Source of the DNA: Dictyostelium discoideum
Lineage: Eukaryota
NCBI GenBank assembly: GCA_000004695.1
Contig: CM000152.2
Span: 1,024,001-1,088,000 of the forward strand
Direction: 5' to 3'
Length of the DNA: 64,000 nucleotides
This document shows positions 52,940-53,754 of this stretch, one piece after another (the stretch's first letter is position 1; each line of letters begins with the position of its first letter). The position numbers were made by a program, and so were the translations under genes. The notes beneath the pieces were generated by a model. The model was not told the origin of the DNA. It worked only from the letters and a program-made list of their open reading frames with translations, and ran no database searches.

Positions 52940-53479
52940 TTATTGTCTTGAAATAAATTCAAATTCAGTGACTGAACCTGAACCTGAACCACTACCTGAA
53001 CCTGATGAACCTGATGAACTTCCTGAACCTGATGAGCTTCCTGAACCTGATGAGCTTCCTGAACCTGATGAGCTTCCTGAGCCTGATGTTGAGCTTCCTG
53101 AACCTGATGTTGAGCTTGTTGTTGAGCTTACTGATGATGTTGATGTACCAGAAGCCATACATGTGTTCCATCCTTTACATAAACCACTGGACCAAGTAGT
53201 CCAAGCATTGAGCTTTAAATAATTTAAAAAAAAAAAAAAAATTAATATTAAATTATCGATAATATTAATTTTTTTTATTTTTTATTTTTTTTTTTTTTAA
53301 TTATTTTATTTAAAACTTACACCTTGAGCCTTTAAAATAGCAGCAGCGCATGCAGCATTTACATCTGGGTTCATAAGATCAGTTTTTCCTGTACATTTGC
53401 ATAATTCACCACAATGTGAAGCAAGATCTTGCCATAAACCAGTTGCTGAACTGCTTGGATTTGTAGCTGTTGGATTCCA

Positions 53480-53537
<58 letters not shown>

Positions 53538-53754
53538 TTAGTATTTTATTTCACCTGTCAAATTAAAAGAAAATTTAGAAAACTTACGATGATTCTTTTT
53601 GAGCAATACAAATCATATCAGTTTGGTATTCAGCTGGAAAATATTGAGCTGCTAAAGCTTGCATTTGTGCACAATCTAAATTGGCACCTTCAGTGCTTCC
53701 AATAAAAGCTAAATAAGCTGCAATTAATGAAATAATAACAGATTTTCCAAACAT
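52940..53754 (-). CDS. C-type (GH22, lysozyme C/alpha-lactalbumin family)-like lysozyme with signal peptide and Ser/Gly-rich C-terminal tail, 3 exons (53588..53754, 53321..53480, 52940..53212), 199 aa
   Basis: MFGKSVIISLIAAYLAFIGSTEG|ANLDCAQMQALAAQYFPAEYQTDMICIAQKESSWNPTATNPSSSATGLWQDLASHCGELCKCTGKTDLMNPDVNAACAAAILKAQGLNAWTTWSSGLCKGWNTCM.. aligns with hen lysozyme (..WVCAAKFESNFNTQATN..GILQINSRWWC..CAKKIV..GMNAWVAWRNRCKG..). Cys spacing and the catalytic Glu (KES) are kept; the second catalytic Asp is not obvious. Donors are GTAAGT (both introns); acceptors AAAAG and TTAAAG. The tail (SGS)n is encoded by 18-bp tandem repeats. Confidence 0.6.

Follow-up and report, generated by a model that had tools for sequence, protein, structure and literature searches.

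Dictyostelium discoideum has roughly 22 putative lysozymes, which have been sorted into C-, Entamoeba-, V- and Aly-type (PMC13399256). 'C-type lysozymes (LyCs)' are recognized in this organism; lyC2 is induced 2- to 5-fold by E. coli (PMC2443395), and the lyC2 knock-out shows poor growth on capsule-less Klebsiella (PMC5890168). Here we analyze a lysozyme-like gene at positions 52940 to 53754 of a 64,000-nucleotide stretch of D. discoideum DNA (GenBank assembly GCA_000004695.1, contig CM000152.2, positions 1,024,001 to 1,088,000 of the forward strand), which we refer to at its full length as the window. The gene is one of the D. discoideum 'lysozyme C-like' (LyC) paralogs, and as such a member of an already annotated family and not a new one. 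Judged from its sequence, the encoded protein (the window protein) combines the fold of C-type lysozymes with an active site that has a single glutamate, as in bacterial lytic transglycosylases.

Within the same species, DDB_G0291137 (UniProt Q54F36, 'Lysozyme C-like protein') is 52% identical to the window protein over the domain. The two have in common a leader, an eight-cysteine domain, a Ser/Thr/Gly-rich tail and an E/A/L active-site pattern, and their genes have an intron at the corresponding site, after ..QG (intron 2 of the window gene). Unlike the window gene, DDB_G0291137 lies on another chromosome, has no CBM49 neighbors and has its first intron elsewhere, and its tail consists of TH[GA]S-type repeats whereas that of the window protein consists of GSSSGS. 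Compared with the hen egg-white, human and Bombyx mori lysozymes of glycoside hydrolase family 22 (GH22), the window protein (~31% identity to animal-type sequences) has a shortened beta-hairpin and Trp62/63 loop, an added Ser/Gly tail, and Ala and Leu in place of Asp52 and Asn59, respectively.

The bacterial counterparts fall on both sides of this difference. Small SLT/SLT_3 proteins (PF01464 with PF18896) carry nearly the same signature as the window protein, ES..NP.A.NP.S.A.GL.QI[ML] ... DL.DP..N ... QG..AW..Y..G.C, with a mean identity to the window domain of 38% and values of up to 48%. Myxobacterial C-type-like lysozymes (Polyangiaceae, Labilithrix; PF00062 with PF18896) are 34-38% identical and have the motifs MVC.A..ES, GL.Q and KAQGLNAW in common with it. 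They differ from it in that Asp52 and Asn59 are present (116 of 116), the cysteines number only four, the leader is of the lipoprotein type and a Ser/Gly tail is lacking. DslA of Bdellovibrio bacteriovorus (Bd0314; PDB 6ta9, deposited as SLT domain-containing) is 19% identical and has neither the disulfide framework nor a tail, and nothing comparable to its specificity for deacetylated peptidoglycan is known for the window protein. We found no literature linking Dictyostelium LyC proteins to lytic transglycosylases.

Fold and Domain Class

The domain of ~105 residues that follows the leader contains eight cysteines, at residues 28, 49, 79, 83, 85, 100, 121 and 127. The disulfides of C-type lysozymes are 6-127, 30-115, 64-80 and 76-94. 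Cys28, 49, 83, 100, 121 and 127 of the window protein align with lysozyme Cys 6, 30, 76, 94, 115 and 127, and the two other cysteines, Cys79 and Cys85, fall in a gapped loop, where lysozyme Cys64 and Cys80 would sit.

The domain was also compared with solved structures in the PDB. The best matches of the single sequence are C-type lysozymes (E ~2e-3), with Slt70 at 0.3. When a profile of 20 amoebozoan proteins was used instead, all 60 best matches were C-type lysozymes, the top one at 8.7e-14 and covering profile positions 4-101 of 106 (98 of 106); the solved structures next nearest after the C-type lysozymes are those of catalytically active lytic transglycosylases. An AlphaFold2 model of the domain of an Acytostelium homolog has a pLDDT (predicted local distance difference test) of 93.3. 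On this evidence the domain has the C-type lysozyme fold.

The Pfam assignment is different. The window protein passes PF01464 (SLT) with 38.4 bits for the full protein and 40.2 for the domain, at a cut-off of 21.3, and the match places residues 48-107 on profile positions 18-78 of 117. The Pfam alignment ends at position 78, and the C-terminal part of the profile with the third conserved motif (positions ~79-117) is not matched; the C-terminal part of the window domain carries a QG..AW..W..C motif, which is common to PF00062 and SLT_3. Against PF00062 (Lys; residues 45-122) the full protein scores 19.7 bits and the domain alone 22.5, below the curated cut-off of 27. An earlier note on this DNA, made without database searches, had named the product a C-type (GH22-like) lysozyme and proposed the PF00062 search as a check. 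The fold and the cysteine framework bear out this name, while the missed cut-off and the absence of the catalytic Asp speak against it. A purely SLT descent, i.e., from glycoside hydrolase family 23 (GH23), was also considered and rejected, as a C-type scaffold agrees better with the fold and cysteine framework and with the solved structures that the profile matched.

Active Site

Glu54, in the E-S motif (E54-S55), aligns with the general acid Glu35 of lysozyme and does not vary among the 20 members of the subfamily alignment. The position of lysozyme Asp52 is taken by Ala68 and that of Asn59 by Leu75. Both observations agree with the earlier note, which had placed the catalytic Glu in this motif and had found the second catalytic Asp not obviously conserved. 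In 116 aligned PF00062-type homologs, bacterial and other, the Glu, Asp and Asn are each invariant, whereas none of the amoebozoan relatives that we recovered has an Asp at the Asp52 position, where A, C, N, Y, S or L is found instead. The motif of the window protein, ES...NP.S.A.GLWQ.L, is typical of Glu-only SLT-type (GH23-like) enzymes; it runs from E54-S55 to G70-L71-W72-Q73 and contains no catalytic Asp. The same E/A/[LM] pattern is present in 74 bacterial SLT/SLT_3-type domain matches.

These findings bear directly on whether the protein could be a classical GH22 C-type lysozyme, with a retaining two-carboxylate mechanism in which another acid (e.g., Asp74, beside Gln73) replaces Asp52. 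Such an enzyme would be in keeping with the C-type fold and cysteine framework, with the PF00062 match recorded for the paralog DDB_G0291137, and with the matches to PF00062 at E <= 0.01 of 19 of the 20 amoebozoan subfamily members (best 9.2e-11). Moreover, Malcolm et al. in 1989 are said to have found that Asp52 mutants of hen lysozyme keep a few per cent of the lytic activity. Nevertheless, the window protein is under the PF00062 cut-off and has Ala in place of the nucleophile, Asp74 is replaced by I, V or L in relatives, and the invariant or nearly invariant columns of the 20-member alignment offer no alternative conserved carboxylate, which makes a classical GH22 mechanism very unlikely in our view.

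Elsewhere in the cleft, the equivalents of Trp108 and Trp111 (NAWTTW) are kept, but those of Asn59 and Trp62/63 are not. The Trp62/Trp63 loop is shortened, with no Trp in the 60-64 loop, and the 45-50 hairpin is three residues shorter than in hen lysozyme.

Some relatives, P0134, P0136 and P0140, have lost the Glu and are degenerate copies, unlike the window protein. In the D. discoideum paralogs P0134 (403 aa) and P0136 (265 aa), which have long AAITGSGGVSG-type repeat tails, FHSSGW replaces the Glu motif; with the catalytic Glu lost, these two are probably pseudo-enzymes. P0165 (188 aa) is a fourth, more divergent D. discoideum copy.

Relatives of the Domain

A single-sequence search of a 5.8-billion-protein collection returned no relative, and the exact window sequence is not in that collection; scans of metagenome and viral contigs likewise found no relative. 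The scan of bacterial genomes gave two Polyangiaceae proteins with 37-38% identity, both passing PF00062 (42-43 bits) and SLT_3, and these two loci were the first relatives and gave access to the family. The follow-on profile search recovered 218 proteins, mostly metagenome or assembly sequences, of which the few named ones are myxobacterial (Labilithrix) and nearly all pass PF00062 and PF18896. It also recovered a protein of Acytostelium subglobosum that is 59% identical and has a Ser/Gly/Thr tail of its own. An exhaustive HMMER search, in which this Acytostelium homolog (P0117) and the three window exon peptides formed the query as separate alignment rows, found 48 proteins below 1e-10, with named top matches from D. 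discoideum (including DDB_G0291137), D. citrinum, Tieghemostelium lacteum, Soliformovum and Stenamoeba, in addition to transcriptome sources.

The window domain is 38-58% identical to 19 members of the amoebozoan subfamily (Dictyostelium, Acytostelium, Tieghemostelium, Soliformovum, Stenamoeba and transcriptome sources), for which the consensus reads C..mq.L...F...miCIa.yESSw.p.a.N.s.a.GLwQ...hcGe.gC...L.dp..NA.CA......qGl.aWttw..gdC..W..C. Amoebozoan LyC proteins have a leader, a ~105-residue domain with eight cysteines and usually a Ser/Thr/Gly-rich tail, and the window protein is built in this way. The HMMER search also reached a second large bacterial group, which passes SLT and SLT_3 and has the signature ES.GNP.A.NP.SGA.GL.QIM...DL.DP..N...QGW.AW.PY..G.C. 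This signature bears a striking resemblance to the window protein, to which the group is as close as the Asp-containing group.

Profile comparison with hhalign scored the amoebozoan group at 196 against the Glu-only SLT/SLT_3 group and at 169 against the Asp-containing PF00062 group, with 140 for the two bacterial groups against each other. On average, the window domain is 38% identical to members of the Glu-only group, 36% to those of the Asp-containing one and 31% to animal-type sequences. As the two bacterial sets came from different queries, these figures are indicative only. Read in this way, they suggest that the amoebozoan group sits between the Asp-containing PF00062 and the Glu-only SLT/SLT_3 groups.

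The C-type lysozyme family is generally seen as one of animals. Nevertheless, many proteins of other origin pass PF00062, namely those of two loci in Polyangiaceae metagenome-assembled genomes (L001, 2818-3576; L002, 2791-3348) and P0001-P0116; they have a leader of the lipoprotein type, and Glu35, Asp52 and Asn59 are all kept. A 2204-residue protein of Calliphora vicina (P0124, XP_065358918.1) contains ten tandem lysozyme-like domains with Glu and Asp kept and Ser at the Asn59 position, and further multi-domain proteins (P0143, P0154, P0160, P0168) appeared in the same search.

Proposed Activity

We consider it reasonably probable that the window protein is a secreted or lysosomal peptidoglycan-cleaving enzyme, namely a muramidase of the phagolysosome that works by a GH23-like, Glu-only mechanism and carries a glycosylated tail. 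Glu54 would protonate the glycosidic oxygen between N-acetylmuramic acid (MurNAc) and N-acetylglucosamine (GlcNAc) in MurNAc-beta-1,4-GlcNAc. As a carboxylate nucleophile is absent, the covalent Asp intermediate cannot form, and the oxocarbenium ion would be stabilized by the 2-acetamido group of the substrate itself, as proposed for GH23. Resolution by water, the route of goose-type lysozyme and of Bdellovibrio DslA, would make the reaction a hydrolysis; alternatively, resolution by the C6-OH of MurNAc would amount to lytic transglycosylation and yield 1,6-anhydroMurNAc. In either case, the protein would assist in the digestion of ingested bacteria.

Several points weigh against this assignment. 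The phagosomal site of action, like the chemistry and the disulfide pairing, is a prediction. The structure was modeled on the 59%-identical Acytostelium homolog P0117 instead of on the window protein. Substrate binding could be impaired, since Asn59, the Trp62/Trp63 loop and the hairpin, which bind sugar in hen lysozyme, are altered. The lyC2 expression and knock-out data may concern a paralog, as the literature does not tie the window gene to lyC1, lyC2 or lyC3, and we found no enzymatic data for the window protein or for any LyC.

The protein might also be a non-catalytic, lysozyme-like protein which, as alpha-lactalbumin, has kept the fold for another purpose, such as glycan binding or a membrane-active antibacterial role. 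However, the E-S motif, GL[WF]Q and their surroundings are conserved across distant amoebozoans (with E, G, L and Q invariant), as expected under selection for catalysis. The combination of a Glu, no Asp, and L or M at the Asn59 position recurs in the large bacterial SLT/SLT_3 group, and the lytic transglycosylases that follow the C-type lysozymes among the nearest solved structures are active enzymes. We therefore regard loss of catalysis as unlikely, and favor the Glu-only muramidase.

More tentatively, the amoebozoan LyC proteins may represent a natural bridge between GH22 and GH23, in which a C-type fold with a complete four-disulfide framework carries the Glu-only signature of SLT/SLT_3 proteins; we see this as a possibility to be held with some reserve.

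Gene Structure

The gene is located on the minus strand, with the ATG at 53754 and the TAA stop at 52942-52940, and its 600 nt after splicing encode 199 residues (Table 1). The ATG starts an open reading frame (ORF) of 56 codons that runs up to a GTAAGT donor; the coding block 53480-53321 is preceded by an AG acceptor and closed by a second GTAAGT, and the last block, 53212-52940, runs into the TAA. The GC content of the exons is 32-43%, compared to 22% for the whole window and 11% and 5% for the introns. In a second D. discoideum assembly, GCA_054883475.1, an independent gene call has the same start, stop and 199-residue product. The sole difference in the DNA of the gene is the poly(A) run in intron 1 (the 47-nt homopolymer at 53482-53528), which is 12 nt shorter there; outside this run the two assemblies agree throughout the gene, the 18-bp coding repeat included.

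This is a real, intact gene for a secreted lysozyme-like protein, and the three-exon model of the earlier note, with its 199-residue product, holds. The GTAAGT donors that it proposed are found at both introns, which end in AG, and the two motifs that it quoted, ..IAQKESSWNPTATN.. and ..GLNAWTTWSSGLCKGW.., both cross exon junctions and are present only after this splicing. The N-terminus resembles a signal peptide, with a hydrophobic leader of residues 1-23 that is predicted to be cleaved.

Table 1. Position of the lysozyme gene, its parts and the related relics in the window.
Feature	Position	Strand	Description
Whole gene, ATG to TAA	52940..53754	-	3 exons, 2 introns, 199-aa product; independent gene call agrees
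Exon 1	53588..53754	-	Residues 1-55 and two bases of the Ser56 codon; Cys28, Cys49, Glu54
Signal-peptide-like N-terminus	53686-53754	-	Residues 1-23, within exon 1
Glu54 codon GAA	53593-53595	-	Exon 1; aligns with lysozyme Glu35
Intron 1	53481..53587	-	107 nt, GTAAGT...AG, 11% GC, 47-nt homopolymer inside
Exon 2	53321..53480	-	Residues 56-109; SLT-like motif NPSSSATGLWQDL; Leu75; Cys79, 83, 85, 100
Ala68 codon	53444-53446	-	Exon 2; lysozyme Asp52 position
Intron 2	53213..53320	-	108 nt, GTAAGT...AG, 5% GC
Exon 3	52940..53212	-	Residues 110-199 and stop; domain end LNAWTTWSSGLCKGWNTC with Cys121, Cys127; tail; C-terminal peptide
Ser/Gly/Thr-rich tail	52973..53155	-	Residues 129-189, 61 aa, 87% S+G, 97% S+G+T
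18-bp tandem repeat	53006..53109	-	5.6 copies, 89% matches, score 167 (Tandem Repeats Finder); unit encodes GSSSGS
Lysozyme relic, exon 2 and intron 1	52357..52495	-	86% DNA identity to 53404-53534; in-frame stops
Lysozyme relic, exon 2 end, intron 2 and exon 3 start	48465..48620	-	70% DNA identity; in-frame stop
Two exon-2 relics	46212-46274 and 46453-46599	-	In-frame stop in 46212-46274
Inverted exon-3 fragment	46360-46417		Within relic region 46212..46599
Start-codon-region relic	55184..55255	-	MFGKKINILL; 80% identical to 53725-53799

The Ser/Gly-Rich Tail

The tail had been described as roughly 60 residues of about 95% Ser/Gly, which is approximately right given its length and composition (Table 1) and the 98% Ser/Gly of its inner 44 residues. 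The 18-bp tandem repeat that was said to lie behind it is also there, as a period-18 array that codes for part of the tail. C-terminal to the tail, the final 10 residues (VTEFEFISRQ) are non-repetitive. An 84-aa ORF on the plus strand (52968-53222, with PEPDEL repeats) was considered as a gene and rejected, as it is an antisense reading of the tail repeat.

Ser/Thr/Gly-rich tails follow the domain in many amoebozoan homologs, for instance in D. discoideum, D. citrinum, Tieghemostelium, Acytostelium and Stenamoeba, and vary in length and sequence. In the D. discoideum cysteine proteinase cprG, a Ser-rich domain bears GlcNAc-1-P, according to the title of Ord et al. (1997), as cited in PMC4920372. 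By analogy, and from its composition, the tail of the window protein may be a disordered segment that is heavily O-glycosylated or phosphoglycosylated (GlcNAc-1-P on Ser). Such a segment would shield the protein from the acid and the proteases of the phagolysosome, and might influence its sorting.

Genomic Context

The window gene lies among small secreted CBM49 (cellulose-binding) genes, which form a tandem array on its own strand over 43097-56514 of the window (minus strand). Three first-exon ORFs of this array (47309-47701, 54437-54829 and 56122-56514) encode identical 130-aa peptides, although the ~1-kb units around them have only ~87% DNA identity. More diverged CBM49 copies are found at 43097, 49321 and 51377. 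Public annotation gives 153-aa products for the array.

In the cluster, the window gene is the sole intact lysozyme copy among several decayed relics (Table 1). The presence of decayed lysozyme pieces between the CBM49 copies implies that the duplicated unit once held a lysozyme copy. Thus, the array evidently grew by duplication of a lysozyme and CBM49 unit, after which all but one of the lysozyme copies were lost. We found no CBM49 gene within 10 kb of the Acytostelium homolog, of one Tieghemostelium homolog or of the D. discoideum paralog DDB_G0291137. With the linkage absent at these three relatives, the proposal that the lysozyme forms a functional module with its carbohydrate-binding neighbors is not supported, and a conserved lysozyme-CBM49 module was rejected. 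As the relics point to a duplicated unit and the relatives have no CBM49 gene nearby, the co-localization is best seen as a product of lineage-specific duplication.

The same observations concern a further explanation, in which the window protein is a cell-wall- or matrix-remodeling partner of the neighboring CBM49 proteins and acts on the polysaccharides of Dictyostelium itself during development, and not on bacteria. Apart from the lack of conserved linkage, all lysozyme copies in the array but one have decayed while the CBM49 copies are intact, which speaks against an obligate pairing, and the nearest relatives in both sequence and structure are peptidoglycan-active enzymes. A role as CBM49 partner is therefore highly improbable, and we continue to favor digestion of bacterial peptidoglycan.

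From inspection of their translations, the sequences flanking the array resemble, on one side (40339-42276, plus strand), a lipoyl-domain 2-oxoacid dehydrogenase E2 (acetyltransferase) gene of at least two exons, and on the other (57009-59771, minus strand) a dynamin-like GTPase of 920 aa that contains long stretches of Asn and of Gln. The latter ORF is identically encoded in GCA_054883475.1.

Implications

For the window gene and its amoebozoan relatives, the 'C-type' label is misleading with respect to mechanism, as the GH22 nucleophile is absent and the site resembles that of Glu-only SLT enzymes. If the bridge between GH22 and GH23 is real, the LyC proteins would be active, as muramidases or as lytic transglycosylases, without ever relying on an Asp nucleophile, the C-type scaffold would support GH23-like chemistry across a whole eukaryotic lineage, and the Dictyostelium 'C-type' group would contradict the statement that a Glu/Asp pair is common to all lysozyme families. 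In other respects the window protein is an ordinary member of an annotated family, and its SLT-like, Asp-less active site is the one point that deserves experiment; for enzymology, it would offer a compact, natural 'D52A' lysozyme. Since D. discoideum is a standard model phagocyte, expectations in studies of phagosomal killing would be affected as well, with regard to substrates, to inhibitors and to whether the products carry reducing or 1,6-anhydro ends.
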